Source: Rhizomicrobium sp. (GTDB taxonomy: Bacteria; Pseudomonadota; Alphaproteobacteria; Micropepsales; Micropepsaceae). Taken from it: DNA of 64,000 nt. This document shows, one piece after another, positions 26,345-64,000 of this stretch (position 1 is the stretch's first letter; the number at the start of each line of letters is the position of its first letter). Made by a program: the position numbers and the translations under genes. The notes below the pieces were generated by a model, which saw only the letters and a program-made list of their open reading frames with translations, was not told where the DNA came from and searched no databases. The DNA is taken from the NCBI GenBank assembly GCA_036490455.1, contig DASXDS010000007.1, positions 855 to 64,854 of the forward strand, given 5' to 3'.

Positions 26345-26346
26345 GG

Positions 26347-31798: not shown

Positions 31799-31800
31799 GA

Positions 31801-31836
31801 TTGACTCGTGGGTTATTTTCGTTACGATACGTAACG
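31801..31836 (+). promoter_or_regulatory. candidate sigma70 promoter (TTGACT-16 nt-TACGAT) overlapped by the palindrome CGTTACG-ATA-CGTAACG (candidate TetR operator)
   Basis: Read directly in the divergent TetR/VOC intergenic region. The palindrome is at 31820-31836. Confidence 0.5.
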
Positions 31837-31864
31837 TAATTAAACGCAAACGGCAAGGTGTGCG

Positions 31865-32314
31865 ATGAGCGGAAGAGGCGCGATGGAATTGACCCCTTAC
31901 ATCACGGTGAAGGGCGCCGCGGCGGCGATCGATTTCTACACCCGGGTGCTCGACGCCAAGGAGCAGTTCCGCCTTAACGGCGAGGACGGCCATATCGGCC
32001 ATGCCGAACTCGCCATCGGCGACGGACGGCTGATGCTCTCGGACGAATCCCCGGCGTTCGGCGCGCTTTCGCCGCTCACCATCGGCGGCACGCCGATCCG
32101 GCTGCATCTCTATGTGCCCGACGTCGATGCAACGTTGCGCAAGGCGGAAGCGGCGGGGGGCACCATCCTGCGCCCGGCGCAGGACCAGTTCTACGGCGAC
32201 CGCTCCGGCCTGTTCGCCGATCCGTTCGGGCATCAATGGTTCGTCGCCACGCGCAAACAGCCCGTGAGTGCGGAAACCATGCAGGAACAGTACACTGACT
32301 CGTTCAAGAGCTGA
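31865..32314 (+). CDS. VOC family protein (PhnB-like)
   Basis: 149 aa. LTPYITVKGAAAAIDFY...HAELAIGDGRLMLSDE...FGHQWFV. Confidence 0.8.
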   Translation: MSGRGAMELTPYITVKGAAAAIDFYTRVLDAKEQFRLNGEDGHIGHAELAIGDGRLMLSDESPAFGALSPLTIGGTPIRLHLYVPDVDATLRKAEAAGGTILRPAQDQFYGDRSGLFADPFGHQWFVATRKQPVSAETMQEQYTDSFKS

Positions 32315-32329
32315 GCGAGGGATCCGCAG

Positions 32330-40501: not shown

Positions 40502-41446
40502 ATGCTGAGGCTATCGGCTGTATTGATTCTAGCGGCTTCACTGGCCGCTCCAACACATAACGACAAAAATCACGTCACCGGCGGCAATTCCAGCGCCGCA
40601 CAGAGCAAGGCCGACCCCTCCCCCGCAGCGAGCCTAGGCATTCCAACCGCCGTCCAGAGCGACGTACAGCGTATCGCCCGCGCACTTGAAGCTGCGAACC
40701 ATAAGCAGCCCATAAAAGCCGAGAACGACCGCGCCGAACGCGACATAAAGGCTCAGGAAGCTATTGCTTGGTGGACGCCGTTCGTCGCTGTCGCCGCCAT
40801 TTTGGAAATGGTGGTTACGTCGGCTGGCGTCGTGCTTGTCGGCTTCACGCTGCGCGCTACGCGAGAGGTTGTCAGCGAGACCAAAAGAGCGGCTGACGCT
40901 GCCGTTGCTGCTGGCACTCAATCCGAGCGCCATGCGAGACAGCAACTCCGCGCCTACGTAGTCCGCTCCAGTTTCAAAACCACACCGCTCTGTCCCGGTT
41001 CCATCCCATTTGCCGATTCTTGGGACCTGTCTTTGGTATGGAAAAATACTGGCCAGACGCCCGCGTACAGGGCCGTCACACGCATCGTTTCTAAACAGTT
41101 CACCGGAGATTTGGACCCGAATTTTGATTTTCCAGATGGGGGAAGTGTGGTCCCCGGCGCTCCCGGCGATACCGTTATTGGACCCGGTGGCGAACTGGAG
41201 AGCCATCTCCGTTTCCCCGTAGACAAACTGCAACGAGCCCAAAAAGGCAAATACAACATCTACATCTGGGGCTGGATCGAGTACGACGACGTGTTTGACG
41301 ATTCTCCCCGCCGCAGGACCGAGACTTGTATTCGGCTCGATATCATTGGCGATCCGATAGAGCCTGCAAACTGCACGATTGAACAGGTGTTCAAGGGGCC
41401 CTTTAATGGGGCCGATGAGTACTGCTATCGCCAGCCACAAACGTAA
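40502..41446 (+). CDS. orphan membrane-anchored hypothetical protein
   Basis: MLRLSAVLILAASLAAP start within track ORF 40334..41446. Has a signal/anchor, a charged coil, one central TM helix (WWTPFVAVAAILEMVVTSAGVVLVGF) and a ~190-aa C-terminal domain (YIWGWIEYDDVF). AT-richer than its flanks. Confidence 0.55.
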   Translation: MLRLSAVLILAASLAAPTHNDKNHVTGGNSSAAQSKADPSPAASLGIPTAVQSDVQRIARALEAANHKQPIKAENDRAERDIKAQEAIAWWTPFVAVAAILEMVVTSAGVVLVGFTLRATREVVSETKRAADAAVAAGTQSERHARQQLRAYVVRSSFKTTPLCPGSIPFADSWDLSLVWKNTGQTPAYRAVTRIVSKQFTGDLDPNFDFPDGGSVVPGAPGDTVIGPGGELESHLRFPVDKLQRAQKGKYNIYIWGWIEYDDVFDDSPRRRTETCIRLDIIGDPIEPANCTIEQVFKGPFNGADEYCYRQPQT

Positions 41447-41470
41447 TAGTCCCATCACCCCTGCCGGTGA

Positions 41471-41495
41471 GCTTGGAACGTTGCTGCATAAGGCC
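41471..41495. repeat. right arm of the 25-bp imperfect inverted repeat
   Basis: GCTTGGAACGTTGCTGCATAAGGCC. See 40295-40319. Confidence 0.75.
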
Positions 41496-41546
41496 GGAGC
41501 GAAACGGCGGCACTGTTACAGTTTGACTTCGAGGGTCGGTAGTGGG

Positions 41547-41765
41547 TCAGTTTGAAATTGGGCGTCGAAACGCAGAAATTGTGAGCCAGACTCCTGTGAC
41601 CAATGAAACTGCCCCCACTGCTACCAGCACCAGATAGCCCGGTATATCTCGGGCGCTGATGTAGTAGCCCGTGAGAGCGTCTCCAAATGCGGGAAGTATT
41701 ATTCCAACACCCATGCTAGCCAAGAGAGCGCCAATAACCGCCTTTATCGCCCTAACATGCGTCAC
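41547..41765 (-). CDS. hypothetical 72-aa two-TM protein inside the TIR element
   Basis: ORF only, GTG start. Two hydrophobic helices. Confidence 0.3.
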   Translation of the reverse strand: MTHVRAIKAVIGALLASMGVGIILPAFGDALTGYYISARDIPGYLVLVAVGAVSLVTGVWLTISAFRRPISN

Positions 41766-41993
41766 GGATTTCCCAGTCCTCTAAAGAAGTCGCCTAAACG
41801 AAAACGGTGGCCGGACGTGGCCGCGCTGATCTTGGCAATCTCATTGCTCTTGTTTTTGGCTGGAATCATTTGGGTTGGTCTTCACTGGTTGCCTATACCC
41901 GCGGTCGTGGCAATCACGCTCGGCTACTTCTTTGTAGGTGGTTTTTTTATCGCGTTGATCTGGTTCGTTCTAAGGGTGGTAGATACTCGATAA
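41757..41993 (+). CDS. hypothetical 78-aa two-TM protein inside the TIR element
   Basis: ORF only. Basic N-terminus (KKSPKRKRW) followed by two hydrophobic helices. Its 5' end overlaps the divergent ORF. Confidence 0.3.
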   Translation: MRHGFPSPLKKSPKRKRWPDVAALILAISLLLFLAGIIWVGLHWLPIPAVVAITLGYFFVGGFFIALIWFVLRVVDTR

Positions 41994-42063
41994 TTTCCTA
42001 GCTTGCCGCCCAATCCAAACTGTAACAGTGCCGAAACGGCCACCCGCTTGACGGCGTCCACAG

Positions 42064-50169: not shown

Positions 50170-50304
50170 ACGCAACCGCAGTCGCCGCATCGATGAACTG
50201 AATCGCTTAAGCAATCATCAGTCCAAATCGCGCCGCTGAACTGGCGGTCGCGTCTCGCTTTGGTGTAGACGTTATCGTGCGCGCAAAGCCGGGGGGCTGG
50301 GCAA

Positions 50305-51507
50305 ATGGCGTTCATTCGGATTTCGGGATTGTTCCTTTATCTCCTGGTCGTGTTGTCTTGTCTTGGCCTGCCCAACGAAGCTTCGGCCCAGCAACAAGTC
50401 GATCAAGCTGCGCTGCATGCGCTCGAACGCCGATCGATCGAAACGCAAAGCGATGCGGTTCTCGTCTATCTCGATGGGAAACAGATATTCGACTATCGTT
50501 CGAAGGCGCCGCGCGAGCCAATGTACTTGATGTCGTGCACCAAATCGATCACCGGCCTCGCGGTGATGGAGGCCATTACCGAAGGCAAGATCACAAGCAT
50601 CGACGAACCGGTCTACAAATTTTTCCCGGAATTGAACCAGGGCCGCAAGAAGCTCATCACCATACGCATGCTTCTGTCGATGACGTCCGGTATCCAGCAC
50701 ATCGGTACCGGCAACGAGGTTTACGCGGCGCCAGATTCGGTAAAACAGGCTGTCGCGGCAGAACTTGCGGACGCGCCCGGATCGGTGTTCAGCTACAACA
50801 ACAAGGCGGTGTCCCTTCTCGCAGGCATCGTCCAGATCGCCACCGGCGAGCAATTGGACGCATACGCCGACGAACATTTTTTCACCCCGATGGGGATTTC
50901 TGATTGGCGATGGGAGCGGGACACGGCCGGCAATCCCTACGCGATGGCCGATCTGAAGTTGCAGCCGGAAGACTTTGCCAAGTTCGGCACGCTGATCCTT
51001 CAGAAGGGCCAATGGCAGGGCAAACAACTGATCGCCGCAAACTGGGTTGACGAGCTGGGCCGGCAATCCCAACCGTATGAGCCGTTGTATGGACTTTTGT
51101 GGTGGCGAATACCGGCACAGGCAAGCGGCACTGTGACGGACAAGCACCTCGCCGCGCTCTCGACCGGCGGGCTCGATCGCGCACTGGTCGACAAGCTCCA
51201 ACAGCTGCGGGGCAAGACCTTCCAGACCCAAACCCAGTGGCATCGCGCGCTTGCCGGCGTCATTCCCGATTGGGAGGACAAAGTCTACATTCCCGGGGTG
51301 ATCGGTCCTTACGCCATGGATGTGCCGACCTGGACGTATCAAGGCTTCGACGGCGTTTCGGCGGAAGGTTATCTGGGCCAATACCTGGTGGTCTTCCCAA
51401 GCCGCAAGCTTGTGGCAATCAGAATGATCAATTCACGCGATGGCTACGACTTCATCAAGAACCGGTTCGAGGATTTCCCGGACGCGGTGCGGGCTCTGGC
51501 GCATTAG
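50305..51507 (+). CDS. secreted serine hydrolase (beta-lactamase/PBP family, class C-like)
   Basis: Signal peptide. SxxK as MSCTK. YxN as SYNN. AT-richer than the flanking queA and tgt. Confidence 0.75.
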
Positions 51508-51674
51508 CACGAAGGCTTCGCGCTTCGACGCGCAGTCAGATGTTGACGCGCGGCCTCTCATCGAAGCAAATCCGGCCCGCAGTCGGTCACGCCGGGAGCG
51601 CTTCCCGATCGTTTTTCTTGGGCGCGATTGCCGGTCTATTCCTACAGGGGCCCCCGTCTGCTATCCCGCCCGCG

Positions 51675-52808
51675 ATGAGCTCCTTCCGTTTCGAATGCAA
51701 AGTCACCGACGGCGCGGCGCGCACGGGCACGATCCACACCCCGCGCGGCGAAATCCGCACGCCGGCCTTCATGCCGCTTGGGACTGCCGGGACGGTGAAG
51801 GCGATGCTGCCGGAAAGCGTGCGCGAGACCGGCGCCGACATCATCCTGGGCAACACCTATCACCTGATGCTGCGCCCGACGGCGGAGCGGATCGCGGCGC
51901 TCGGCGGACTGCACCGTTTCATGAACTGGCCGCGGCCGATCCTGACCGACAGCGGCGGCTTCCAGGTGATGTCGCTCTCCAAGCTGCGCAAGATCACCGA
52001 AGAGGGCGTTGCCTTCCGCTCGCATGTCGACGGCAGCGAATATTTCCTCTCGCCGGAACGCGCGATGGAGATCCAGCGGCTGCTCGGCTCCGACATCCAG
52101 ATGGTGCTGGACGAATGTCCGGCGTTCGATGCGGACGAAGGGGGAATCGAGAAATCGCTCGCGCTTTCGATGCGCTGGGCGAAGCGCTCGAAAGCGGCGT
52201 TCGGCGAGCAGCCGGGCCATGCCTGTTTCGGCATCGTGCAGGGCGGCGTGTTCGCGCCTTTGCGCCAGCGCTCGGCGCGCCAGCTGGTCGAGATCGGTTT
52301 CGACGGCTACGCAGTCGGCGGTCTCGCGGTGGGCGAGCCGCAGAGCGCGATGTTCGAGACGCTCGACGCCACCACGCCGCATCTGCCGGCCGACCGGCCG
52401 CGCTATCTGATGGGCGTCGGCAAGCCGGACGACATCGCGGGCGCGGTGCTGCGCGGCATCGACATGTTCGATTGCGTGCTGCCGACGCGCTCGGGCCGCA
52501 ACGCGCAGGCGTTCACCCGCTTCGGGACCGTCAACCTGCGTAACGCGCGCCACGCGGACGATCCCGCGCCGCTCGATCCGCAGTGCGGCTGTCCCTGCTG
52601 CCGCAACTACAGCCGCGCCTATCTGCATCACACCGTGAAGGCGAAGGAGATCATCGCCTCGATGCTGCTCACCTGGCACAATCTCACCTATTATCAGGAC
52701 CTGATGGCGGGCCTGCGCGCCGCGATCGAAAATGGTGAAACCGGAGCGTTCGCGGCCGGAATTTTCGCCGCTTTTCCGCGGGAATCCGCCTCCGACGAAA
52801 CGGTTTGA
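51675..52808 (+). CDS. tgt: queuine tRNA-ribosyltransferase
   Basis: ATG at 51675 within track ORF 51099..52808. [22 protein letters not shown], Zn site [16 protein letters not shown]. Confidence 0.95.
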
Positions 52809-52845
52809 CCGGGCAGGCCCATCCCCCTATGTTCCGCCGCCCTTG

Positions 52846-52920
52846 GGGCCCGTAGCTCAGTGGTAGAGCATCTGACTTTTAATCAGAGGGTCGATGGTTC
52901 GATACCATCCGGGCTCACCA
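52846..52920 (+). tRNA. tRNA-Lys (anticodon UUU), CCA encoded
   Basis: Manual fold. Acceptor GGGCCCG/CGGGCTC, D-arm GCTCAGTGGTAGAGC, anticodon loop CTTTTAA, T-arm GGTTCGATACC, discriminator A plus CCA. Confidence 0.9.
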
Positions 52921-53137
52921 TTTAATCAAGGGCTTAGCTTAGAAGCCCTCCGGTTGAGGTAGGCGTCGATTGTCTTGATCGTGTCGTGCATCGACCACGA
53001 GACATACTCCCCTAGCTCTTCGCCGCCAGAGGTCTACTGAGATTCCGCTTTGCGCACGATCTCATGGATGGTCTCCATTTTCCGTCAGTGTAGCACCCAC
53101 GGTGTCAATGCTCGCAGGGATCACTTTGGGGATAACA

Positions 53138-53512
53138 CTATTGGAAGTCCACGTAGTGGAACTCGGATGATCCGAAAAGGCCAGTTTTCACCAAGCCTGA
53201 GAGTATCCACTTTCCGTTGTCGAGGTGCCGCAACTCAGCGTTAGTTTTAACAACGTCAAGGTAAACGAAATAGATCATTCGAACCCCACCTGCGCAATCC
53301 GAAACGCCATATACGTCGACTGCCACACTGTTCGGGTTCGCAGTTCGCCAAAGTGCGTTCGATGCAGTTTGTATCTTGTCGTCTGATGGCCGTGGAGTGT
53401 TACACGCGTCATAAACACGCGGTGCAGCGGCAATTGGCGCTTTAGCGGGTGGATTGCATGCAGCCAGAACCAAGCAAGAGGCGCAAGCCGCAATCTTGAA
53501 AAGTCGTGTCAT
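53138..53512 (-). CDS. hypothetical lipoprotein (AT-rich, island-borne)
   Basis: Track ORF 53138..53524. MTRLFKIAACASCLVLAAC lipobox. No recognised family. Confidence 0.45.
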   Translation of the reverse strand: MTRLFKIAACASCLVLAACNPPAKAPIAAAPRVYDACNTPRPSDDKIQTASNALWRTANPNSVAVDVYGVSDCAGGVRMIYFVYLDVVKTNAELRHLDNGKWILSGLVKTGLFGSSEFHYVDFQ

Positions 53513-53731
53513 CGTGTCCCCCACCGTTCCAGAAAGACTACCCTCGCTCTACCACTTATTTTGAGGCATGTGACGTAAAGAAACAGGCCGCCCGAAAGCA
53601 GGCTGTTTGAAGTCAGGTCAGGGCGGTGCAGATGCCGTGGATGACGTTGTGAAGCTGCCGGGTCGCGCCGGGATTTTCAGCGACGCGGCCGGTGAGCGCA
53701 TAGGTCGTTGCATTGAAGAGCCTCCACGCCG

Positions 53732-53848
53732 TTTTCCGAGCGTGTATTCGGCCAGCCGCCGCTTCGCCTCGCTACGAGCGTCTTGGAGGCTCAGGATGCC
53801 CACGCGGCCGATGGTCTTTCGGTCGCGGCGGTCTTGCGGTGCGACCAG
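53732..53848 (-). pseudogene. remnant of a tyrosine-recombinase (phage-type integrase) N-terminal domain
   Basis: Manual translation gives ...RRDRKTIGRVGILSLQDARSEAKRRLAEYTLGK. This matches the conserved '..R.TIGRYP.ISLAEAR.EAKR.LAE' segment of DUF4102-type integrases as I recall it. The similarity disappears after LGK and no catalytic domain follows. Confidence 0.55.
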
Positions 53849-55398
53849 AACTTGCGGACCGGCGCGTTGTAGTCCTCAACCACCTCGCTTTTGACGTCGA
53901 AGACCATCGAGGTGCGCCGTGTGGTGGAATAGGTCGGCCATGACGGGATCAGCGTGTTGTCTGGGACACCGCTGCGCGCAAAAGCGAGCCAGCTTTCGCT
54001 CATGGCGTCGGCGACCGTCTGCGGCTGCGGTCCATCGCCGACGAAGGCGCGTGTCCTTTCTACATTGTCGAACATGAGCGGGATGTCGAGCGCGTGAGGG
54101 CTGCGGAAACGGCCGCCCAGCACGGGCGTCTCCCAGCCCAGCACGTAATGGAACACGGGCGCCCGCGCAGCGGTGCTGCGGCCTTCGGTCAGCTGCACCG
54201 TTGGATACCAGGCTCCCAGATCGCCCAAGAGGCCGGTCATCAGATAGCCGGGTGGTTCATCCGGCCGCAGTTCTCTGTAGAACGCCAGCGCATCGGCCAT
54301 CGGCTCGCCCGAAACCATGGCGCAGATCTGGCCGGCCTCTTCAAGCGACAGGGAGGCGAAATTCGGAAGGATCGAGAAGTGCATCGCCAGCTCGTCCTTC
54401 GTGGTGCCGATCACGAGCGGTACATCGGGAAACAGCGCATGGGATCTCGGATCGCCGGGATGATGCGGCAGATCCCGCTCGTCAATCATCGGCTGCCAGC
54501 ATCCCATCGAACCGTCGAGGATGCGGACGCCTTGCATCTTCGCTTCCGTCGCGAGAGACGCTTCGACCATGCGCGGCCACGGTACGGTTTCGATCTGACT
54601 CAAGGTCGCTTTGGTGAGGCCGAGCTCCGCGAGCAGCGCATGCGCGGTCTTCGCCGAGCGCTCGCGCGTGTTGGCGTGCACGAACGGTCCGCTCTGAACG
54701 ATTGCGCGATGGAAAAGGCCGCATGCCGCCGGCATGCTCAGCATCGCGAGGACTTTGCCGCCACCACCCGACTCTCCGAAGATGGTGACGTTGCCGGGAT
54801 CGCCGCCGAACGCCGCGATGTTGTCGCGAACCCATTCCAGCGCAAGGACGATGTCGTGCATACCGCTGTTGCCGGAGTGCTCGTATTCGGAGTCGAACTC
54901 ACCCAGATACAGGTGCCCGAACACATTCAGGCGATGGTTCAGCGTGACGATCACCGCGTTGCCGCGCGCGCTCAGCCGCGAGCCATCGATCAGCGGCGTC
55001 GAGCCGCAACCGCGCGCAAACCCGCCGCCGTGCAGCCACACCATGACCGGACGTTGTTCCGCGTCGACCCCCGGTGTCCACACATTCAGGCTCAGGCAGT
55101 CTTCGCCGACATGAAGCATCGACGGATCGGCCTCGAACATCTGTCCGAAGATCGTCGACGGATCGGGTTGCGAGGCCTTGACGTCCTGGGGACAGACTTC
55201 TCCGAATTCGAGCGCGTCGCGCACCCCGCTCCAGCCCTGCGTTTTGCGCGGGGGCCGAAAACGCTGCGCACCACCGGCCGGTTCTCCATAAGGGATGCCC
55301 TTGAATATCGTGACGCCGGCCCTCCGCGCGCCCCGAACCTTGCCGCTTTGCAGTTCCGCAACTGTCGTCATGGGCGCCATCTGCTGCCTTCCGCTCAC
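53791..55398 (-). CDS. type B carboxylesterase/lipase family protein
   Basis: 535-aa ORF. GKVRG...FKGIPYGEP N-terminus and nucleophile elbow FGESGGG. The start could be one of three Met codons (55398, 55380 or 55371). Confidence 0.85.
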   Translation of the reverse strand: MSGRQQMAPMTTVAELQSGKVRGARRAGVTIFKGIPYGEPAGGAQRFRPPRKTQGWSGVRDALEFGEVCPQDVKASQPDPSTIFGQMFEADPSMLHVGEDCLSLNVWTPGVDAEQRPVMVWLHGGGFARGCGSTPLIDGSRLSARGNAVIVTLNHRLNVFGHLYLGEFDSEYEHSGNSGMHDIVLALEWVRDNIAAFGGDPGNVTIFGESGGGGKVLAMLSMPAACGLFHRAIVQSGPFVHANTRERSAKTAHALLAELGLTKATLSQIETVPWPRMVEASLATEAKMQGVRILDGSMGCWQPMIDERDLPHHPGDPRSHALFPDVPLVIGTTKDELAMHFSILPNFASLSLEEAGQICAMVSGEPMADALAFYRELRPDEPPGYLMTGLLGDLGAWYPTVQLTEGRSTAARAPVFHYVLGWETPVLGGRFRSPHALDIPLMFDNVERTRAFVGDGPQPQTVADAMSESWLAFARSGVPDNTLIPSWPTYSTTRRTSMVFDVKSEVVEDYNAPVRKFWSHRKTAATERPSAAWAS

Positions 55399-55496
55399 GT
55401 GTCAGACACCCCGGCCGGAGCTTGCCGCTATTGGCGGTGTTGGCGGGTTCGGCACGCGCCGGGTGTCTTATCCTCCGGGCCAGGAGGCAGCCGTCC

Positions 55497-56402
55497 ATGG
55501 ATATCGGAAACTGGGCTACGACCGCGGATCTGAACCCCATTTACACCGATATCCGCGAGCTCGATCTCGAGCGTTGCATCGCCGAGTTCGATGCGTTCGG
55601 TTTCACCGTCATCCCGCCGGAAAAGATCGGGCCGCGCGCGTTCCATGAACGGCTGCGCGATGCGATTCTCGAAGTGCATGAGCGACGGACAGGACACCAT
55701 GTGGACCCCGCCAAGCTATCGTCGGCAACGCTCGACGGCGACCGTCCACTGGCGACGTATTGGTCGCTCCTGGGCGAAGATCCCGTGTTCGAGAAAGCGG
55801 TGATGAATCCCGTCGTCTATGCGATGGCGCGCTATCTCTGCGGAAAAAGCGTCCTGCTCTCCGATGCGATTGCGCTGGTGAAGCGCCGCGACGCAACGCC
55901 GACGCATCTTCTGCATATCGATCAGGCGGGTACGCCGCCGCCGCTGCCGCCCTATCAGCAGGTGATCAACATCACCTGGGCGCTAACCGACTACACCCGG
56001 GACAACGGCGCGGTTGCCATCGTACCGGGCAGTCATCGCTATGGCCGCATGCCAATGGCTTATGAAGAAAACTTCCTCGCCAACGACGCGCCGGTGCCGG
56101 CTATTCCCATCGAGTGCGAAGCGGGTTCGCTGATCATCTGGGGCGGCACGACGTGGCACGGAAGCTATCCGCGCAATGCGCCGGGTCTGCGCGTCAACCT
56201 GATCATGGCGTTCTGCCGCGCCTACATGAAGCAGGTACGCGACTTCCGCAATGAGATGCCGGCGTTTGTCGTCGAGCGCAACGGACCGGAGTTCGCGCAA
56301 CTCATCGGCATGAATGCGCTTTATCCGATCGACAAAGACAAGCCGATGAACATGACGAACCGCAAGGCGTTCCTCGACGCGGGGCTCAATCCCTGGGCGT
56401 GA
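55497..56402 (+). CDS. phytanoyl-CoA dioxygenase (PhyH) family Fe(II)/2OG oxygenase, paralogue 1
   Basis: MDIGNW start within track ORF 55422..56402. HxD as LLHIDQ, distal His in TTWHGSYPR. Confidence 0.8.
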   Translation: MDIGNWATTADLNPIYTDIRELDLERCIAEFDAFGFTVIPPEKIGPRAFHERLRDAILEVHERRTGHHVDPAKLSSATLDGDRPLATYWSLLGEDPVFEKAVMNPVVYAMARYLCGKSVLLSDAIALVKRRDATPTHLLHIDQAGTPPPLPPYQQVINITWALTDYTRDNGAVAIVPGSHRYGRMPMAYEENFLANDAPVPAIPIECEAGSLIIWGGTTWHGSYPRNAPGLRVNLIMAFCRAYMKQVRDFRNEMPAFVVERNGPEFAQLIGMNALYPIDKDKPMNMTNRKAFLDAGLNPWA

Positions 56403-56403
56403 G

Positions 56404-57825
56404 TCACGCCACGCGCGCGGCCCGTTCCTGCCGCTGATGCAGGCGGCGGCGGATGATGTCGTGGCGGCGCGCATCGATCGGGAAATACACCAGTAGCAGC
56501 ACGCCGCCCAGCACCAGGAACGGCACCGGACCGAAGCAATAGACGTATTTCAGTGCCGTGAGCGCCTGCGGCCCGTTGTGCGCGCCGGGATGGAAGCCCA
56601 GCCACTGCAGGATCGGGAGCGTGACGCCGATGCCGGCGGCAGGCGCAACCTTCTGCGCAAAAGACCAGACGCCGAAGAAAATGCCGCCGCGCGGCAGCCG
56701 GTATTTCAGCGTGTCGAAGTCGATGATGTCGCCGATGATGCCCAGCGGCAGCGTGACGAAGCCCGAACTCGTCGCGCCCATGATCGCCAGCAGGCCGACA
56801 TACACCCAGCCGTCGCCCGCTCCGAACAACGGCGTCACCACACCGTACAGCACCATGGTGAAGAGGAGCGAGATGGCAGTCGCGCGGTGCTTGCCGATGC
56901 GCCGGCTGACCCACAGCCAGAACGGCACCGCACCCACCGTCGTGATGGCGAGGATGAAAAGCGCCGGTCCCACGACCGACGGCTGCTTCAGATAATCGTC
57001 TATGAAGAACACCATCGTGGCGCTGGCGACGCTGGTTCCGATCGTGAAGACGACATAGCAGAAACAAAAAAGACGGAACGGCTTGTTCAGGAACAGCGCC
57101 CGAAGCGAGGGCAGCCAGGGAACGTGGACGCGCCGCGTCACCGGCGGTTCTTCGACGAAAGCGATGGCGATGGCGGCCGCGAGCGGCGTGAGCACGATGA
57201 TGGCAAGGCCCATGATCGTCATCGTGAAGCGGTCGACGCCGTGCCCGTAAAGCCCGGTGATCGCGGGAATGCAGGCGGCGAGGACGCCGCCGATCACACC
57301 GGCCGTTTCGCGGAACGCCGCGAGGCGCGAACGCCCGTGATAGGTCTCGACCAGTTCGGTGCCCCAGGCCGAGTAGGAAAGACCGTAGCAGGAGCCGCCT
57401 GCATAGATCACGAACGACGCGATCAACAGGTACCAGCCGCTGACCGGAATCATCGGCGTGAACAGGATGAAAGCGCCGAGCATCAGGATCGGCGTGCCGA
57501 TCATCATCCACAATTTGCGCCGTCCGAAGCGCGAGCGCGACGCATCCGACCACTTGCCGATCATCGGATCGAGGAACACGTCGGCGGCACGCGACAGCAG
57601 AAGAAATCCGCCGACAGCCGACAGGCTCACATGCATCGTGCTGGCGTAATAGGCCGGCAGCAGCAAGGCGACGGGCAGAAACAGAAACGACAGCGGAATG
57701 GATGGCAGGGCGTAGAGCGCAAGCTTGCCGTGCGAGATATCCGGCGCATTTCTGGGTGCGGGAAGCGCGTCGGCCACGGCGTGTTCGGCCTCGCCGATCG
57801 CCGTACTGACTTCCGTCAATGCCAT
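56404..57825 (-). CDS. glycoside-pentoside-hexuronide (GPH)-type MFS cation symporter
   Basis: 473 aa, about 12 TM helices. The signature DVFLDPMIGKWSDASRSRFGRRKLWM corresponds to the MelB/GPH D-P-x-I-G-x-x-S-D-R...GRRRP motif. Confidence 0.8.
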   Translation of the reverse strand: MALTEVSTAIGEAEHAVADALPAPRNAPDISHGKLALYALPSIPLSFLFLPVALLLPAYYASTMHVSLSAVGGFLLLSRAADVFLDPMIGKWSDASRSRFGRRKLWMMIGTPILMLGAFILFTPMIPVSGWYLLIASFVIYAGGSCYGLSYSAWGTELVETYHGRSRLAAFRETAGVIGGVLAACIPAITGLYGHGVDRFTMTIMGLAIIVLTPLAAAIAIAFVEEPPVTRRVHVPWLPSLRALFLNKPFRLFCFCYVVFTIGTSVASATMVFFIDDYLKQPSVVGPALFILAITTVGAVPFWLWVSRRIGKHRATAISLLFTMVLYGVVTPLFGAGDGWVYVGLLAIMGATSSGFVTLPLGIIGDIIDFDTLKYRLPRGGIFFGVWSFAQKVAPAAGIGVTLPILQWLGFHPGAHNGPQALTALKYVYCFGPVPFLVLGGVLLLVYFPIDARRHDIIRRRLHQRQERAARVA

Positions 57826-57841
57826 TTCGAGCCCCGGTTGT

Positions 57842-59293
57842 TCACGCGCGGATCAGCAGGCTGGCTTCGTCCGGCCGCCGCTGCGCCCAGGGCCGCGCTT
57901 TCTCCAGTTGCCCGGCCAGCCGGAACAAGGTCGCTTCGCCGCCGTTGCGCGCCGCGAACTGGATGCCGATCGGAAGCCCGCTTTCGCTCCAGGCGAGCGG
58001 CACGGACATGGCCGGCGATCCGCTCACATTGAAGGGCTGCGTGTTCGGCATGAAGTTGTAGAGCTTTTCGCCGTAACCGGAGAGATCCTGTGCGTTGGTG
58101 TCCATATAGCCGAGCGGCACCGGTAACTGTGCCAGCGTCGACGACATCACAACATCGTAGGTCTCGAAGACCGAGCTGATCTGCCGGCCGATCGCATGGA
58201 TCGTCTGGATCGCGTTGTAATAGGTAACGGCCGTGCTCGCCTTGCTCTCTTCAAAGATGGTCATGGTGAGGGTTTCGACATCGTCGAGGGTGACCGGTCT
58301 GCCGCGGCGTTCGGCTTCGCGCAGAAGCGACGATGCAACGCTGTTCTGAACGCCGATGTTGACGGCTTGCGCCATCGCGATGAAATCGCCGGGCAGGGTC
58401 GGCAGCTCTTCGACGTGGTGACCGAGAGTTTCGAGGAGCCTTGCGGCGTCCTTCACTGCGCCAACGACGGGTTCTTCGAGCTTGCCCCAGGTTAGTGCCG
58501 CGGTGGTGAAGCCGATGCGCAGCTTGCCCGGATCGCGCGCGACCTCTTCCAGAAAAGGACGTTCCGGCGGTGGAGCCCAGTATGGATCGCCGAGCTGCGG
58601 CACGCTCACGATATCGAGAAGCAGGGCACTGTCGCGCACGCTCCGTGTCACGGCGTGCTGCTGCGCCAGCCCGCCCCAGCCTTCGCCGGCAAACGGCGCA
58701 AGAGAGACCCGGCCACGCGACGGCTTCATGCCGAATACGCCGCAGCACGAAGCCGGGGTGCGGATCGAACCCCCGCCGTCGCTGGCATGCGCTGCCGGAA
58801 CGATGCCGGCTGCCACAGCCGCGGCAGAGCCACCCGATGAGCCGCCCGGCGTGAGCGCCAGATTCCACGGATTGTGCGTGGCGCCGAACAGGACCGGTTC
58901 GGTGGTGCAGGCGAGTCCCAGCTCCGGCGTGTTCGTCTTGCCGAAGATCACAAGCCCGGCGCGCCGCAGAGCCGCAACGAGAGCGCTGTCGCGGTCCATC
59001 GTGGTGTTCGCGAACAAGCGCGAGCCGGCCGATGTCGGCACGCCCTTCATGTAAGCGGAGATGTCCTTGAGCAGGAACGGCACGCCCGCCAGTGGACCGT
59101 CACCGGAACCGGATTTGATCGTCTCGCGCGCTTCGGCTTCGAGGCTACGCACAACGGCGTTGATTTGCGGATTGACTGCTTCGCAGCGCGCAAGCGCCGC
59201 GTCGAGCAGTTCGCCGGCGCTGACATCGCGCTGCTTCACAAGCCCGGCAAGGCCGATGGCGTCGTAGTCTGCGTATTCGGTGAAGTTCGCCAT
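57842..59293 (-). CDS. amidase-signature family amidase, paralogue D
   Basis: 483 aa. MANFTEYADYDAIGLAGLV, LLKDI, GGSSGGSAAAVAAG, DGGGSIRTP. Confidence 0.9.
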   Translation of the reverse strand: MANFTEYADYDAIGLAGLVKQRDVSAGELLDAALARCEAVNPQINAVVRSLEAEARETIKSGSGDGPLAGVPFLLKDISAYMKGVPTSAGSRLFANTTMDRDSALVAALRRAGLVIFGKTNTPELGLACTTEPVLFGATHNPWNLALTPGGSSGGSAAAVAAGIVPAAHASDGGGSIRTPASCCGVFGMKPSRGRVSLAPFAGEGWGGLAQQHAVTRSVRDSALLLDIVSVPQLGDPYWAPPPERPFLEEVARDPGKLRIGFTTAALTWGKLEEPVVGAVKDAARLLETLGHHVEELPTLPGDFIAMAQAVNIGVQNSVASSLLREAERRGRPVTLDDVETLTMTIFEESKASTAVTYYNAIQTIHAIGRQISSVFETYDVVMSSTLAQLPVPLGYMDTNAQDLSGYGEKLYNFMPNTQPFNVSGSPAMSVPLAWSESGLPIGIQFAARNGGEATLFRLAGQLEKARPWAQRRPDEASLLIRA

Positions 59294-59327
59294 GGACCGT
59301 CCGTTTGCGCAAAGATGGATCGGGCTG

Positions 59328-60224
59328 TCAGGCAGACGGTGTGTGGTTCGCCCGGTTCACCGCGACCATGCGATCGTATTTCGGACCGGCGCTGCCATAG
59401 CCCTGCCATTTGGTGCGGCCGATCAGGCGCGCGAACTCCGGACCCTGCTTGTCTACGATCTCGTCGGGAACGTCGCTGAAATCTTCCGCCGGATCGACAT
59501 AGTTGCGGCAGAGCGCGGTCACGATGTGCGCCCGCACGGCGGCATCCTTCTTCGGATAGGTGCCGTGCCAGGTGTTGCCGTGGAACACGAAGAGAGAACC
59601 GGGTTTGGCGATGATCGGTATCCCGATGTCGTTTTCGTTCGGTCCGCCCATCATCTTCGGCTGCTCGATCGGGGTGGGATGGCGGCAATAACGATGGCTG
59701 CCCGGCACGATGAAGAACGTGCCGTTCTCCTCGGTGTAATCGGTCAGAATCCAGCTGATGTTGCACACATGGCCGAAGGAGGGGAGCGGCGGCGGCATGC
59801 CGACCGAGTCGCTGTGCACATTGGTGCAGCCGGCTTCCCCTTTCTTGAGGAACGCGACATTGCTGTAGAGGCGGCAACTCGCACCCATCAGATACTGGCC
59901 GAGGGTGAGCGCCACCGGATTCATGATCGCCTCGGCGAAGACGGCGTCCTTCGCGAGCAGATGGAAGAGATTGCGGCCGTAGACCGGGCGGTCCTTCTGG
60001 GCTCGCGTCCCGAGATCGACCGCCATGGGGTCTTCTTCGTCGGCCACTTTCAACAGCGCCGAGAGCATGCGGTCGGCGAACCCTTTGGGCGCAACCTTCT
60101 CCGGCTCGACGACCGTGAAGCCGAACGCTTCGAGTTCGGCGATGTTGGTCTCCACGCCCAGCGCGCGCGCCCGGCGGTAGATTTCATTCAGTTCAGCGGT
60201 GGTCTTCCAGTTGCCGATTTCCAT
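59328..60224 (-). CDS. phytanoyl-CoA dioxygenase (PhyH) family Fe(II)/2OG oxygenase, paralogue 2
   Basis: MEIGNW start at 60224 within track ORF 59328..60341. HxD as NVHSDS, distal His in NTWHGTYPK. Confidence 0.8.
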   Translation of the reverse strand: MEIGNWKTTAELNEIYRRARALGVETNIAELEAFGFTVVEPEKVAPKGFADRMLSALLKVADEEDPMAVDLGTRAQKDRPVYGRNLFHLLAKDAVFAEAIMNPVALTLGQYLMGASCRLYSNVAFLKKGEAGCTNVHSDSVGMPPPLPSFGHVCNISWILTDYTEENGTFFIVPGSHRYCRHPTPIEQPKMMGGPNENDIGIPIIAKPGSLFVFHGNTWHGTYPKKDAAVRAHIVTALCRNYVDPAEDFSDVPDEIVDKQGPEFARLIGRTKWQGYGSAGPKYDRMVAVNRANHTPSA

Positions 60225-60277
60225 GCGTAAAGCCCCGGATTGCAAAGAAGAAAAGACCCGCCAGCGCGCCAAATCCG

Positions 60278-60721
60278 CTATCGGGCGGCCTGCCCGAAGC
60301 CCCGGAAATAGCGATGCAGCGTCCGGCTTTGAAAATACCATGTATCGCCGGCCTTCACGAACCGGTCGCGGAACTCGCCGAAGGTCGGCGGCTTCGACGC
60401 CGGGAGCGGTTCGTCGCCCGGGGTCGTGTCATAGCTCAGCACCGTCAGGTAGCAGATCCCCGTCGCCTGTTGCGGGCCGGTCACGTCGATCGTGAAGTTG
60501 GTACAGATGTGGCGCATGAAGATGCCGCTGGTTCGCCATTGCGCCTGTCCGGCCATGATCGCGTCCAGACCGGAAAACGGCGGGTATTCGGGCAGCGTGA
60601 TCGTGGCATCCTTGACGAACAGTTCGGCGAATTTCGGATCCTGCCGGTCGGCCAGCGTTCCATACCGTTGCTGGAGGCGGATGCACTGAGCTTCGATCGC
60701 CAGCTTTTCTTCTTGTGTCAC
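60278..60721 (-). CDS. NTF2-like (SnoaL_4-type) protein
   Basis: 147 aa. Composition and length fit SnoaL/NTF2-like proteins (IEAQCIRLQQRYGTLAD...FMRHICTN...). Assignment from memory. Confidence 0.55.
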   Translation of the reverse strand: MTQEEKLAIEAQCIRLQQRYGTLADRQDPKFAELFVKDATITLPEYPPFSGLDAIMAGQAQWRTSGIFMRHICTNFTIDVTGPQQATGICYLTVLSYDTTPGDEPLPASKPPTFGEFRDRFVKAGDTWYFQSRTLHRYFRGFGQAAR

Positions 60722-60878
60722 CGTGGCTCTCCCATCGCGATTTGTGGCGCTACAATGCAGCGAATCCGGAAGTTTCGGGAGTGGCGGGTTCGCGCCGCGC
60801 GGCGTGTCTTACAGCGGGGAAAAATCGGCGTTGGTTTGGCGCAGACGTTTCTCTCCATTCCGAGCCAGGAAGCAAGCC

Positions 60879-61982
60879 ATGAACACCGACGCGCTGAGGG
60901 TCATAACCCTGGACGGTGGACCGGTGGCACGCGGCCACCAGCATGGCGAAACGCTGCGTGAGAAGATCCGCGAACTGCTCGAGCGCTGGGACGAAGGCTT
61001 GCGCCGCGTCTACAAAATCGACCGCACGCGTTACGTCGAGCGTTTCTATGCAGAGACGCGTTTCGAACAGGCGTTGCAAAGCCACGCGCCGGCGATTCTG
61101 CAGGAGGTACACGCCATCGCGGACGGTGCCGGCGTCGACTACCGCACACTGCTCGCGTGGCAGCACATCAACGAGGAGTTCTGGCTCGCGCTGCCTACTG
61201 CGCCGCAAGGCGAAGCGTGCAGCACGATCGCGCTTGGCGGGAACGGCAAGACGCCCTCGCTGATCGGGCAGAATCTCGATCTCGATGCCTATCTGGACGG
61301 TTATCAGATTCTGCTCAGCCACCGATGCGATCGCTCCGATGGACGCATCCTGGCAACCAGCGTTCCCGGGATGATCAGCCTGAACGGGATGAACACGCAC
61401 GGCTTTGCCGTGTGCGACAACGCATTGGTGAAATTGCGATCCGACGTGGCCGGGGTGCCGATTTTTGCGCTCTATCGCCTGCTGCTGGAGGCACGCACGC
61501 TCGCCGAGGCGATAGCGATCATCGAGGCGCTGCCGCACGCGTCGGGATTGAACTGGGTAATGGGCGATCCCAACGCCGTCGCGATGTATGAGCGCAGCGC
61601 AGGACGCATGGTGAAATACGGTCCCGACGATCCGGCGCGACCGGTCTATCACACCAATCACCCCTTCCGGAACGAAGACGTCGCCATGCCTGCCGGAGCG
61701 CCGGAGCGGCCCACCCGCAGCACCCATCTGCGCTTCGCGGCCCTCGACGCGCGGCTGCGCGGACTCGACGAACCCCTGACCGTCGATCTGATCAAGGCGA
61801 TCCTGTCGGGACGCGACGACCGCGACTATCCGGTGTCGCGTGGCGGCGGCAAGAACGAGGAAGACGAAAATATCGGCTTCACGCTCGCCTGTTGCATCTT
61901 CGAACTCGACGCCGCGACGCCCCGGCTGCACATCGCCGCGGGGCCGCCACACCTCTGTGAATTCAGGACTTTTTCCCCCTGA
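60879..61982 (+). CDS. peptidase C45 family Ntn acyltransferase/hydrolase (isopenicillin-N acyltransferase-like)
   Basis: MNTDALRVITLDG...RGHQHGE start within track ORF 60723..61982. Candidate nucleophile Cys in GEACSTIALGG. ...GMNTHGFAVCDN...ASGLNWVMGD. Confidence 0.7.
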   Translation: MNTDALRVITLDGGPVARGHQHGETLREKIRELLERWDEGLRRVYKIDRTRYVERFYAETRFEQALQSHAPAILQEVHAIADGAGVDYRTLLAWQHINEEFWLALPTAPQGEACSTIALGGNGKTPSLIGQNLDLDAYLDGYQILLSHRCDRSDGRILATSVPGMISLNGMNTHGFAVCDNALVKLRSDVAGVPIFALYRLLLEARTLAEAIAIIEALPHASGLNWVMGDPNAVAMYERSAGRMVKYGPDDPARPVYHTNHPFRNEDVAMPAGAPERPTRSTHLRFAALDARLRGLDEPLTVDLIKAILSGRDDRDYPVSRGGGKNEEDENIGFTLACCIFELDAATPRLHIAAGPPHLCEFRTFSP

Positions 61983-62071
61983 ACGAATAGCGGATTTCGC
62001 CCTCCGGCGTGTCGGGCTTGACGCGTCGCTAACCGCGGCAGAAGGCTGTTTTCGTCCTCCCGGAGTGCCTC

Positions 62072-62497
62072 ATGGACAAGTTCGAGTTCGCAAGCCCCGC
62101 GTGGATCGCGGCATTGAAAGAGCTTCTGGTGGTTTATTCGGCAAAGGCCGGGCCTTCGACCAGCCTGAGCATCTGCGAGATCTTCAACAAGGTTCCAAAG
62201 CATCTCGACAAGCACGGCACCGGCACGATCGCCTGGCATTGCATCGTGGAGAACGGCAAGCTGGTGAAGTTCGAGGAAACCGCGATCGACGAGGCGGATG
62301 TCCGCACCGAACACGACTACGATTTCGTCGTGCCGATTGCGAAGAAGGTCTACTCGCCGGAAGGGATGGCGGAAGTCGAAGAATACATGGCCAAAGGCAT
62401 CGCCGAGGGACGATCGAAATCGACAAGCCGCGACCGCAGCAAGGTACCGCCGAGTTTTATCGCAATGCACAACGATCTGGCCGTGCGCACGCTTTAG
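62072..62497 (+). CDS. small hypothetical protein (possibly SCP2-like)
   Basis: 141 aa. SPAWIAALKELL N-terminus is reminiscent of SCP2-type proteins. Weak assignment. Confidence 0.45.
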   Translation: MDKFEFASPAWIAALKELLVVYSAKAGPSTSLSICEIFNKVPKHLDKHGTGTIAWHCIVENGKLVKFEETAIDEADVRTEHDYDFVVPIAKKVYSPEGMAEVEEYMAKGIAEGRSKSTSRDRSKVPPSFIAMHNDLAVRTL

Positions 62498-62522
62498 GAC
62501 GGCCGGCAACAGGGAGATAACC

Positions 62523-63401
62523 ATGGCAGAGCCGATCCTCTACGAAACGCCGGCGCCGGGCATCGCGCGCGTCGTGCTGAATCGTCCCGAGACGCGCAAT
62601 GCGCAGGACACGCGGCTGCTCTATGAACTGAACGACGCCTACGATCGCGCCACCCAGGACGAGAGCATCAAGGTGATCGTCACTGCGGCGAACGGGCCGC
62701 ATTTCTCCTCCGGGCACGATCTTCGCGAGCGCGACCACCTGGAGACGCAGGACCGCTACAAACCGGTCACCAGCGCCACCGGCTATCGCCGCGCAGGCGC
62801 CGAAGGCCGACAGGCGCGCGAGGAGGAGATTTACACCGGCTTCTGCGAGCGCTGGCGCAACATTCCCAAGCCGACCATTGCGGCGGTGCAGGGGCGCTGC
62901 AGCACCGGTGGTCTCATGCTGTGCTGGCCGAGCGATCTCATCGTCGCGTCCGACGATGCGGTATTCGAGGATGTTACCGTGATGCTCGGCATTCCGGGTG
63001 TCGAGATGTTCAGCCACGCCTACGAGCTCGGTCCGCGCAAGGCCAAGGAGATGCTGTTTGCCGGCGCGCATATCAACGCCGAGGAAGCGCGGCAGATGGG
63101 CATGGTCAATCGCGTCGTGCCGCGCGCAGAGCTCGAAGCGGCAACGCTGGCGCTCGCGCAGCAGATCGCGCTGCGGCCGTCTTTTGCGCTGAAGCTCGCG
63201 AAGCAGGCCGTCAACAATGTGCAGGATGCCGCTGGCCGTCATGCCGCGCAGGCAACTGCGTTCGCGATGCATCATCTCGCACACAGCCACGCCATGGAAG
63301 TGTTCGGCCTGCCGGTCGATCCCGGCGGCGTTCACAAGGGCGTCGCGGGCACCTACGCCAAGGGCGACGAGCCCTGGCGGCAGAAGGCGAAAACCGCTTG
63401 A
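62523..63401 (+). CDS. enoyl-CoA hydratase/isomerase (crotonase) family protein
   Basis: ATG at 62523 within track ORF 62298..63401. GIARVVLNRPETRNA...VIVTAANGPHFSSGHDL...AAVQGRCSTGG. Confidence 0.85.
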   Translation: MAEPILYETPAPGIARVVLNRPETRNAQDTRLLYELNDAYDRATQDESIKVIVTAANGPHFSSGHDLRERDHLETQDRYKPVTSATGYRRAGAEGRQAREEEIYTGFCERWRNIPKPTIAAVQGRCSTGGLMLCWPSDLIVASDDAVFEDVTVMLGIPGVEMFSHAYELGPRKAKEMLFAGAHINAEEARQMGMVNRVVPRAELEAATLALAQQIALRPSFALKLAKQAVNNVQDAAGRHAAQATAFAMHHLAHSHAMEVFGLPVDPGGVHKGVAGTYAKGDEPWRQKAKTA

Positions 63402-64000
63402 GACAAGACGAGTATCAGAAGGAGGACGCCGTCGGTCTCGCCGCGCTGATCAAAAATCGCGACGTGAGCGAGACCGAAGTGCTCGATGCCGCGCTGGCGC
63501 GGCTGGATCAGGTCAACGGCAAGTTGAACGCGGTCATCGACCGGTTCGACGACGAGGCCCGGCAGGCGATCAAGACCGGCTTGCCCGACGGGCCGCTGCG
63601 CGGCGTACCTTATCTGATCAAAGATATCGGCGTGTGGATGAAGGGCCATCCGACCGCTGCCGGTTCGCGCCTGTTCAAGCAATCGGCGCCGGCCGCGATG
63701 GACAGCGAGCTGATCGCTGCCTATCGCCGCGCGGGGCTGGTGCTGTTCGGCAAGACCAATACGCCGGAGTTCGGTGCTGCGGCCGTGACGGAATCGCCCG
63801 CGTTCGGCATTGCACGCAATCCCTGGAGCCCGGGCCACACTTGCGGCGGTTCGTCGGGCGGCTCGGCCGCCGCGGTGGCCGCGAGCGTCGTTCCCGCCGC
63901 CCATGGCAGCGACGGCGGCGGCTCGATCCGCATCCCGTCCAGCTGTTGCGGCCTGTTCGGGCTGAAACCGTCGCGCGGGCGCGTGTCCTCTGCACCGCTG
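63398..64000 (+). CDS. amidase-signature family amidase, paralogue E; the 3' end runs off the right edge
   Basis: Absent from the ORF track because there is no stop in the window. A TTG at 63398 overlaps the crotonase stop. Manual translation gives ...GLAALIKNRDVS...YLIKDIG...GGSSGGSAAAVAAS...[14 protein letters not shown]. Confidence 0.85.
   Translation, partial: MRQDEYQKEDAVGLAALIKNRDVSETEVLDAALARLDQVNGKLNAVIDRFDDEARQAIKTGLPDGPLRGVPYLIKDIGVWMKGHPTAAGSRLFKQSAPAAMDSELIAAYRRAGLVLFGKTNTPEFGAAAVTESPAFGIARNPWSPGHTCGGSSGGSAAAVAASVVPAAHGSDGGGSIRIPSSCCGLFGLKPSRGRVSSAPL

Follow-up and report, generated by a model that had tools for sequence, protein, structure and literature searches.

We know of no bacterial pathway for the recycling of amide-linked lipids. 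The closest described systems are the peroxisomal alpha/beta-oxidation of phytanic and pristanic acid, the hydrolysis of lipid amides in animals by FAAH, NAAA and acid ceramidase, the acyl-CoA:isopenicillin N acyltransferases (AAT/IAT; MEROPS family C45), the nylon-oligomer hydrolase NylA, and the fum cluster of Sphingopyxis sp. MTA144. Here we compare these systems with a group of enzyme and transporter genes at the right-hand end of a 64,000-nucleotide stretch of Rhizomicrobium sp. DNA (contig DASXDS010000007.1, positions 855 to 64,854; the window). Positions 53791-64000 of the window are the left part of a conserved chromosomal cluster of at least 20 kb, and probably of about 30 kb, that lies shortly downstream of a tRNA-Lys(UUU) gene. 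Catabolic gene clusters are a familiar kind of system, and this one is a variant that is not yet characterised. A first-pass annotation of the window knew of no characterised pathway that combines these gene families, and we likewise found none of this composition in the literature. Its new parts are an unannotated family of SCP2-fold proteins, a recurrent module of PhyH, SnoaL_4, SCP2-fold and crotonase genes, and an apparent regulatory circuit that runs from a TetR protein to an extracytoplasmic function (ECF) sigma factor with a defined motif.

We favour, with reasonable confidence, the reading that this conserved cluster carries its own regulation and serves the catabolism of an amphipathic amide or ester taken up from outside. 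That the substrate is a lipid-type N-acyl amine we put at slightly under an even chance, with an N-acylated amino-alcohol or sphingoid-type lipid as the leading guess; the earlier suggestion of an amide- or ester-bearing compound that can be activated with CoA fits the evidence. The cluster genes inside the window are the following (E-values and scores refer to Pfam or NCBIfam models, unless stated otherwise).

53791-55380, minus strand: type-B carboxylesterase, 529 aa, with a GESGG motif (PF00135, E 3e-91)
55497-56402, plus strand: PhyH 1, Fe(II)/2-oxoglutarate dioxygenase with HID...WHG (PF05721, E 6e-21)
56404-57825, minus strand: MFS_2 symporter, 473 aa (PF13347, E 6e-70)
57842-59293, minus strand: amidase D, with GGSSGG and DGGGSIR (PF01425, E 2e-101)
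59328-60224, minus strand: PhyH 2, dioxygenase with HSD...WHG, a core member (Pfam PhyH; 90% aa identity to L003)
60278-60721, minus strand: SnoaL_4 protein (NTF2-fold), a core member (PF13577, E 6e-21)
60879-61982, plus strand: C45-family Cys-Ntn acyltransferase/hydrolase proenzyme, 367 aa (NF040521, 173.7 bits against a cutoff of 85)
62072-62497, plus strand: SCP2-fold protein (orf141), 141 aa (AlphaFold2 model, pLDDT 95.9; Foldseek)
62523-63401, plus strand: crotonase-family enzyme of PRK08290 type (PF00378, E 4e-39; NF006140, 373 bits against a cutoff of 280)
63398-64000, plus strand: amidase E, first 200 codons in the window (full length of 479 aa in L001; 57% identical to amidase D)

All ten enzyme and transporter families named in the first-pass annotation hold in Pfam and NCBIfam comparisons, the SCP2-like protein at the level of fold. 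The divergent transcription units do meet at 60722-60878 as annotated. A convergent PhyH/esterase pair was also annotated, but the esterase and PhyH 1 genes are divergent (starts at 55380 and 55497) and the convergent pair consists of PhyH 1 and the symporter (56402/56404). A motif check found the catalytic motifs intact and signal peptides absent in the cluster enzymes, which all appear to be cytoplasmic, suggesting that the compound is imported intact. The esterase has bacterial carboxylesterases as its best matches in the PDB (E 1e-96), shares 74% of its amino acids with its counterpart in locus L003 and occupies the same position in L033. The crotonase has a PDB match in 3ome (1e-73).

The cluster can be followed past the window on a contig from a second sample (L001, 20.9 kb), which is 99.93% identical to the window over the shared 11.5 kb (52523-64000) and reaches 9.4 kb rightward beyond the window end; a JGI metagenome contig (L002, Ga0376660_0001091) is 100% identical over window positions 52523-64000. 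From the window onward, L001 carries the remainder of amidase E, a second crotonase (ECH2), two acyl-CoA dehydrogenases (ACADs), a TetR gene (TetR_C_24), the ECF sigma factor, a long-chain acyl-CoA ligase, a third PhyH gene and an S15 hydrolase of the CocE/NonD type, and the cluster runs on past the end of this contig. The lack of a visible second boundary in the window is an artefact of the window edge. Locus L013, whose S15 hydrolase shares 79% of its amino acids, adds a second ligase, a second TetR gene, a TonB-dependent receptor, an APH kinase, an enzyme of the class-III aminotransferase fold (Aminotran_3) and a third amidase.

Gene-neighbourhood comparison, which the first-pass annotation had proposed, showed that the genes are co-conserved as a unit across loci. 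The same gene order, at 65-93% amino acid identity, is found in L003, L004 (metagenome-assembled genome (MAG) contig JAFEEQ010000006) and L013, and the order is also kept in L033. A core consisting of C45, amidase, MFS_2, TetR, ECF sigma factor, ligase, SnoaL_4, PhyH, SCP2-fold protein, crotonase and the ACAD pair is retained in Rhizomicrobium (L005), in Sphingosinicella microcystinivorans (CP116005, about 891-913 kb; L006) and in L011 and L012. Synteny extends over Rhizomicrobium, Sphingosinicella and further MAGs of Alphaproteobacteria. Relatives add a pair of MaoC hot-dog proteins, a short-chain dehydrogenase/reductase (SDR) and a thiolase, as well as TonB receptors. In a database of 5.8 billion proteins, 115 homologues of C45 and 79 of orf141 (P0236-P0314) were present, and a scan of genome contigs with C45 yielded two MAG loci only. 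Few of these homologues have named sources, which are Rhizomicrobium, Caulobacteraceae, Hyphomonadaceae and Sphingosinicella; the system therefore appears to be rare and may be restricted to certain lineages. In L012 (1-9350), a distant carrier, the C45 cluster adjoins genes for GH116 (the glucosylceramidase family), a PIG-L deacetylase, a glucosamine-isomerase-like protein, GFO/IDH, a BadF-type kinase and a TonB receptor, and these neighbours hint at a glycolipid or amino-sugar conjugate.

The part of the cluster that would handle an acyl chain resembles peroxisomal phytanic/pristanic acid oxidation, which involves PHYH, SCP2, a ligase, branched-chain acyl-CoA oxidase or LCAD, MFE-2 and SCPx. 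PHYH uses SCP2-bound substrate. The cluster likewise combines PhyH proteins, an SCP2 fold, a long-chain ligase, LCAD-like ACADs and crotonases, and its relatives the MaoC pair, the SDR and the thiolase. The ligase of L001 scores 612 bits on a model for long-chain-fatty-acid-CoA ligases whose cutoff is 476. For ACAD1 of L001, human LCAD is the nearest match (7e-108), while short-chain and isovaleryl-CoA dehydrogenases match at about 1e-70. The symporter had been annotated as GPH-type. Its MFS_2 Pfam assignment stands, but it scores 140.8 bits on TIGR00792 (GPH), below the cutoff of 231.35, and its nearest solved relatives are the MFSD2A lysophosphatidylcholine symporters (E 4e-20, against 2e-7 for MelB); on both grounds a sugar-transporter reading of this gene was rejected.

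The assignment of orf141 comes from its predicted structure. Sequence searches of Pfam, even at E<=10, of NCBIfam and of PDB sequences with a profile all returned nothing, whereas the eight top Foldseek hits of the model are all SCP2 or UbiJ-SCP2 proteins (best E 4e-6, TM score 0.56, probability 1.00). The description as SCP2-like holds at the level of this modelled fold, which is a lipid-binding one. The homologues of orf141 carry no precomputed Pfam domain and almost none is named. The family is always linked to PhyH, SnoaL_4 and crotonase genes, and L005 encodes a second paralogue (270-692). The SnoaL_4 gene in turn always adjoins PhyH or C45 across the loci.

Both PhyH proteins of the window are clear members of their family, with 76.1 and 63.8 bits against a Pfam cutoff of 22 and the HxD...H iron triad present. 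In contrast to the peroxisomal system, they are not close to PHYH, which is not among their PDB matches at E<=0.01, and a ThDP (thiamine diphosphate)-dependent 2-hydroxyacyl-CoA lyase was not seen in the cluster. Action of the cluster PhyH enzymes on CoA esters is putative. The amidases, C45 and the esterases of the cluster have no counterpart in peroxisomal oxidation. PhyH 1 is present in L033 and L034 and absent from L003 and L004. The L033 cluster (1-20426), from a close relative, contains five PhyH paralogues; such numbers, up to five per locus, suggest repeated hydroxylation of a branched or beta-oxidation-resistant chain. Between the esterase and PhyH 1, L033 has an extra TetR gene, a 142-aa open reading frame (ORF) and a PhyH gene that are absent from the window, indicating gene gain or loss inside the cluster.

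The nearest solved relatives of the PhyH proteins are the natural-product dioxygenases AndA, SptF and PrhA (E 1e-7 or weaker). These tailoring enzymes, the adjoining CoA ligase and the likeness of C45 to a biosynthetic acyl-CoA:isopenicillin N acyltransferase (TM score 0.82) would suit a cluster that makes or tailors a secondary metabolite or membrane lipid bearing acyl groups, with C45 serving as acyl-CoA:amine acyltransferase and the PhyH enzymes carrying out tailoring hydroxylations. We regard this as very improbable: the 21 kb contain no polyketide synthase, non-ribosomal peptide synthetase, terpene synthase or other scaffold-forming gene, and the genes that dominate, namely hydrolases, ACADs and crotonases of beta-oxidation type, an uptake-type symporter, TonB receptors and TetR, are typical of catabolism.

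For the amide bond, the comparison is with animal lipid-amide hydrolysis: the cluster too has amidase-signature enzymes and a Cys-Ntn proenzyme whose fold neighbours include the animal enzymes. The candidate nucleophile of C45 is Cys114 in the sequence ACST, which is invariant across 39 homologues. Its AlphaFold2 model (pLDDT 92.3) has AAT (2x1c) as its best Foldseek match (E 2e-22), followed by acid ceramidase, NAAA and bile-salt hydrolases, which are lipid-amide hydrolases. C45 shares with AAT/IAT the fold, the family model, which it passes, and a Cys where cleavage and the nucleophile are expected; autoproteolytic maturation and acyl transfer or hydrolysis are predicted activities. It differs from them in its identity (about 20%) and in its bacterial, catabolic context. 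There are differences from the animal route, too: C45 is nearer to AAT than to ceramidase, and FAAH is a distant match of amidase D (1.6e-36).

Amidase D has NylA as its best PDB match (3e-90, 306 bits), followed by GatA and aryl acylamidase ahead of FAAH. Amidases D and E both carry GGSSGG at residue 150, DGGGSIR at residue 172 and [LI]KD at 74/75, and the amidase-signature motifs are common to amidase D and NylA. As NylA is a 6-aminohexanoate-cyclic-dimer hydrolase, and urethanases match too, the cluster might instead degrade a non-lipid oligo-amide, lactam or xenobiotic amide or ester, for example omega-amino-acid oligomers of the nylon-oligomer type, hydroxamate or amide siderophores, or carbamates. 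The number of hydrolases, including the one of S15 CocE/NonD type, the TonB receptors of relatives, which suit siderophore-sized solutes, and three more tandem amidases in the same genome (24911-29204) would agree with such a function. Nevertheless, we consider it improbable. No amidase reaches an NCBIfam equivalog cutoff (the best score is 340 bits against 418, for PRK07869), and partners of the NylB, NylC, NylD or NylE type are not present. The MFSD2A-like transporter, the SCP2 fold, the long-chain ligase, the LCAD-like ACADs and the acid ceramidase/NAAA-like fold neighbours of C45 all point to a hydrophobic acyl chain, and the class-III enzyme of relatives is of the phospholyase type and not of the omega-transaminase type.

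This class-III enzyme also bears on the amine that would be released. In L013 its closest matches are two phosphoethanolamine phospholyases, 5g4i (E 1e-112) and 6tor (1e-105), with the next match at 1e-48. Its gene adjoins that of the APH kinase, and together they suggest a vicinal amino alcohol. The pairing recalls the animal disposal of ethanolamine by ethanolamine kinase and ETNPPL/PHYKPL, and the cluster importer is MFSD2A-like; unlike in the animal route, neither a kinase nor a phospholyase was found in the part of the source genome that L001 covers. A further system with an apparently long-chain amino-alcohol substrate is the fum cluster, which is also alphaproteobacterial and includes a type-B carboxylesterase. 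It also contains genes for the transport and dehydrogenation of tricarballylate (PMC3136697). Identity with the fum cluster was rejected on gene content, as no tricarballylate genes occur in 21 kb. FumD is a weaker match of the esterase than generic bacterial esterases are (8e-50 against 1e-96), and deamination here would use a kinase and a phospholyase instead of a FumI-type transaminase.

The first-pass annotation described the cluster as regulator-less. Within 52921-64000 there is indeed no regulator, transposase or repeat, but the description reflects the window edge: the TetR and ECF sigma factor genes lie about 5 kb past the window end, and a promoter-like motif occurs within the window itself. 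A 30-nt repeat upstream of PhyH 1 and C45 led to the motif [GA]GCGG-N15-16-GTGTC, with the consensus TGGCGGAT-N11-12-G(C/G)GTGTC. Five loci contain 18 matches, 15 of which lie 24-71 nt upstream of the start of a gene on the same strand; shuffled sequences gave 2.3 matches in total and 0.12 upstream (maximum 2). The bipartite motif stands upstream of most cluster operons, and the genes behind it include those for the esterase, PhyH 1, C45, the SCP2-like protein, ACAD2, thiolase and PhyH 2. Its copies in the window are:

55405-55429, minus strand: promoter-like motif, 25 nt before the esterase start
55442-55467, plus strand: promoter-like motif, 30 nt before the PhyH 1 start, back-to-back with the esterase copy
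60783-60808, plus strand: promoter-like motif, 71 nt before the C45 start
61989-62013, plus strand: promoter-like motif, 59 nt before the SCP2-like gene, with the same site in L005 and L033

The copy upstream of C45 is conserved in L003, L004, L005, L011, L012 and L033. Scans for sigma-70 promoters and terminators gave matches at background level.

The ECF sigma factor (L001 16428-17129), a group-4 sigma-70 protein, scores 79.6 bits on TIGR02937, against 42.9, and contains Sigma70_r2 and r4_2. No anti-sigma gene lies next to it; in nine out of nine loci where the region is seen, it is followed by the ligase and preceded by the divergent TetR gene. The TetR-sigma intergenic region (L001 16251-16427) contains a sigma-70-type promoter, TTGACT-N17-CATAAC, and then two palindromes, CCGAC-NN-GTCGG and TGAC-N7-8-GTCA. 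This arrangement is common to L001, L003, L004, L005, L013 and L033, and from their sequence and position the palindromes are candidate TetR operators. We infer that TetR would repress the sigma-70-type promoter of the sigma factor/ligase operon, and that the ECF sigma factor, once made, would drive the other operons through the bipartite consensus.

From family membership, fold and synteny, the cluster may work as follows. The MFSD2A-like MFS_2 symporter would take up, in intact form, an amphipathic compound that contains amide and ester bonds and whose acyl part is long or branched; a TonB-dependent receptor is present in relatives as well. In the cytoplasm, the type-B esterase and the S15 hydrolase would cleave the ester bonds of this compound, and amidases D and E together with the Cys-Ntn enzyme C45 would de-amidate or trans-acylate it. 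The long-chain acyl-CoA ligase would activate the acyl moiety, and the resulting acyl-CoA would be processed by the PhyH dioxygenase(s), SnoaL_4, the SCP2-fold carrier, the two crotonases and the two LCAD-like ACADs. In relatives, the released vicinal amino alcohol would be removed by the APH-type kinase and the enzyme of ethanolamine-phosphate-phospholyase type.

Several points weigh against this reading of the cluster. None of its enzymes has an experimentally characterised close homologue, so that the substrate class rests on resemblance at the level of family and fold. Amidases D and E have a nylon-oligomer hydrolase, and not a lipid amidase, as their top hit in the PDB. The kinase, the phospholyase and the TonB receptor are seen in relatives only, and the L001 stretch contains no 2-hydroxyacyl-CoA lyase, hydroxyacyl-CoA dehydrogenase or thiolase. 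In addition, regular-expression searches found no match to the motif in the Sphingosinicella locus L006, and the sigma factor is linked to the motif through co-occurrence only.

A more specific form of the same reading is that the cluster encodes a previously undescribed bacterial pathway consuming N-acylated amino-alcohol lipids, of the ceramide/sphingoid, N-acylethanolamine or aminohopanoid type, which we regard as possible, though on present evidence rather unlikely. A lysolipid-type symporter would import the lipid, FAAH-like amidases and the ceramidase-like C45 would cleave its amide, and the kinase and phospholyase would dispose of the amino alcohol. A counterpart of peroxisomal alpha-oxidation (PhyH, the new SCP2-fold family, SnoaL and crotonase) would ready the branched or hydroxylated chain for beta-oxidation, and the TetR-to-ECF-sigma cascade, operating without an anti-sigma factor, would switch on the whole set. 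If the general model holds, soil alphaproteobacteria would possess a widespread route for recycling amide-linked lipids, and functions could be given to the unannotated SCP2-fold family, to bacterial C45 enzymes and to the clustered PhyH paralogues. In addition, the cluster would be a compact example in which a TetR repressor takes the place of an anti-sigma factor in controlling an ECF sigma factor, and its defined promoter motif lends itself to direct testing.

The position of the cluster next to a tRNA gene had been taken as a sign of a genomic island. The features at this junction are:

52846-52920, plus strand: tRNA-Lys(UUU) (ARAGORN; Rfam 73.6 bits)
52921-53830, no strand: junction segment of about 0.9 kb with foreign composition (low GC, without homology to relatives)
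53138-53524, minus strand: orphan lipoprotein-like ORF, 128 aa, lipobox LAAC (GC content at third codon positions (GC3) 0.535)
53735-53824, minus strand: Arm-DNA-bind_3-like stretch of about 30 codons (PF13356, E 0.077, 13.6 bits against a cutoff of 27)

An Rfam scan found nothing besides the tRNA. Four contigs represent relatives at this site (TGT 85-86% identical in amino acids), three of them with DNA sequence (L008, L009 and L010). The backbone up to tgt is the same in all four, in the longest, L008, with the order SSB, GyrA, CoaD, PPIase, DegT, QueA and TGT, and tRNA-Lys was confirmed in L008, L009 and L010. In blastn searches and alignment, DNA homology to these three ends exactly at 52920, the CCA end of the tRNA, so the observation that the conserved backbone stops directly 3' of tRNA-Lys is solid. 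Comparison of this site between relatives, as had been suggested, showed that the cluster is absent from it in the nearest relatives found and that the DNA following the tRNA is different in each, consisting of transposase/phage fragments or polysaccharide genes. The site is thus a variable or plasticity zone in this lineage. In L008, which among relatives with DNA sequence is the closest, a fragment of an HTH_Tnp_1 transposase and a DUF5681 ORF follow the tRNA (11680-14396), indicating that the same tRNA was struck by other mobile DNA.

The first 0.9 kb after the tRNA, which includes a hairpin at 52930-52948, is probably debris from an earlier integrative or mobile element. It had been called AT-rich. 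Its GC content is indeed lower (0.49-0.55 over about 52900-53600, against about 0.63 elsewhere), but it is AT-rich in a relative sense only. The annotated orphan lipoprotein has its lipobox and a single weak homologue (E 2e-5) among 1.8 billion representatives, but no Pfam, NCBIfam or PHROG family, and the JGI gene caller predicts just its last 46 codons; its coding status is uncertain. For the annotated integrase remnant, what stands is a match of 30 residues to Arm-DNA-bind_3, the arm-type DNA-binding domain of tyrosine integrases. It covers profile positions 44-73 of 83 and is therefore truncated at both ends; as a targeted test its per-model p is about 3e-6, yet it stays below the Pfam threshold, and neither PHROGs nor tblastn against plasmids lent support. 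The esterase is conserved with L003 only as far as about 53842, its last 16 codons being unique and overlapping the integrase-like stretch in another frame. This places the junction between cluster and debris at about 53825-53841 and makes it a secondary rearrangement.

Do these features make the cluster itself the cargo of an island, put into the 3' end of tRNA-Lys by a P4-type tyrosine integrase that has since decayed? As in P4-type tRNA islands, the cluster follows directly after a tRNA 3' end, is absent in relatives, where synteny breaks exactly at this end and each has different DNA, and has between itself and the tRNA a segment of low GC content that holds an orphan ORF and a stretch faintly resembling an arm domain. 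The HTH_Tnp_1 and DUF5681 fragments at the same site in L008, and the other contexts in which homologous clusters are found, one beside SelO-like genes and another beside IS5-like ORFs, also speak for mobility. The IS5-like ORFs adjoin the cluster in L004 (898-1739) and were judged by eye from their translation to resemble an IS5-family transposase.

Unlike in such islands, the composition of the cluster is native, with a GC content of 0.62-0.67 and a GC3 of 0.76-0.84, against a GC3 of 0.84-0.85 in the backbone, and the deviation is limited to 52921-53600. The rightward search for a repeat of the tRNA-Lys 3' end (GGTTCGATACCATCCGGGCTCACCA) that had been proposed found none with up to three mismatches in the 20.9 kb of L001; a scan of L001 for direct repeats returned similarity between paralogues and the promoter-like motif only. 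L001 also lacks an intact integrase, excisionase, transposase or transfer gene, and the integrase-like fragment lacks the first ~43 profile positions and is fused to the 3' end of the esterase, which points to the secondary rearrangement. Finally, the cluster is common in Rhizomicrobium MAGs, and homologous clusters in the other genomes examined have no tRNA within the 13-21 kb looked at. We consider the island unlikely; a neighbouring tRNA gene was not in itself enough to turn the cluster into mobile cargo.

Other parts of the window show further features. A second amidase locus about 25 kb upstream of the cluster (24911-29204 and 31208-32443, both on the minus strand) has three tandem amidase-signature genes and a TetR gene (TetR_C_11) nearby. 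Its amidases, 38-47% identical to amidases D and E, thus belong to a separate subgroup. At 29-33 kb the AT skew is strongly negative, which suggests that a membrane protein is encoded in between. Just upstream of ssb, at 41001-42000, the GC content dips to 0.529, overlapping a 314-aa ORF without a Pfam family (L035 1386-2330). Between queA and tgt, which overlap directly in L008, a segment without a blastn match (50174-51634) contains a gene for a serine hydrolase of the beta-lactamase fold (ORF 50305-51507, plus strand; PF00144, E 4e-31) with a GC content of 0.577 and a GC3 of 0.718.

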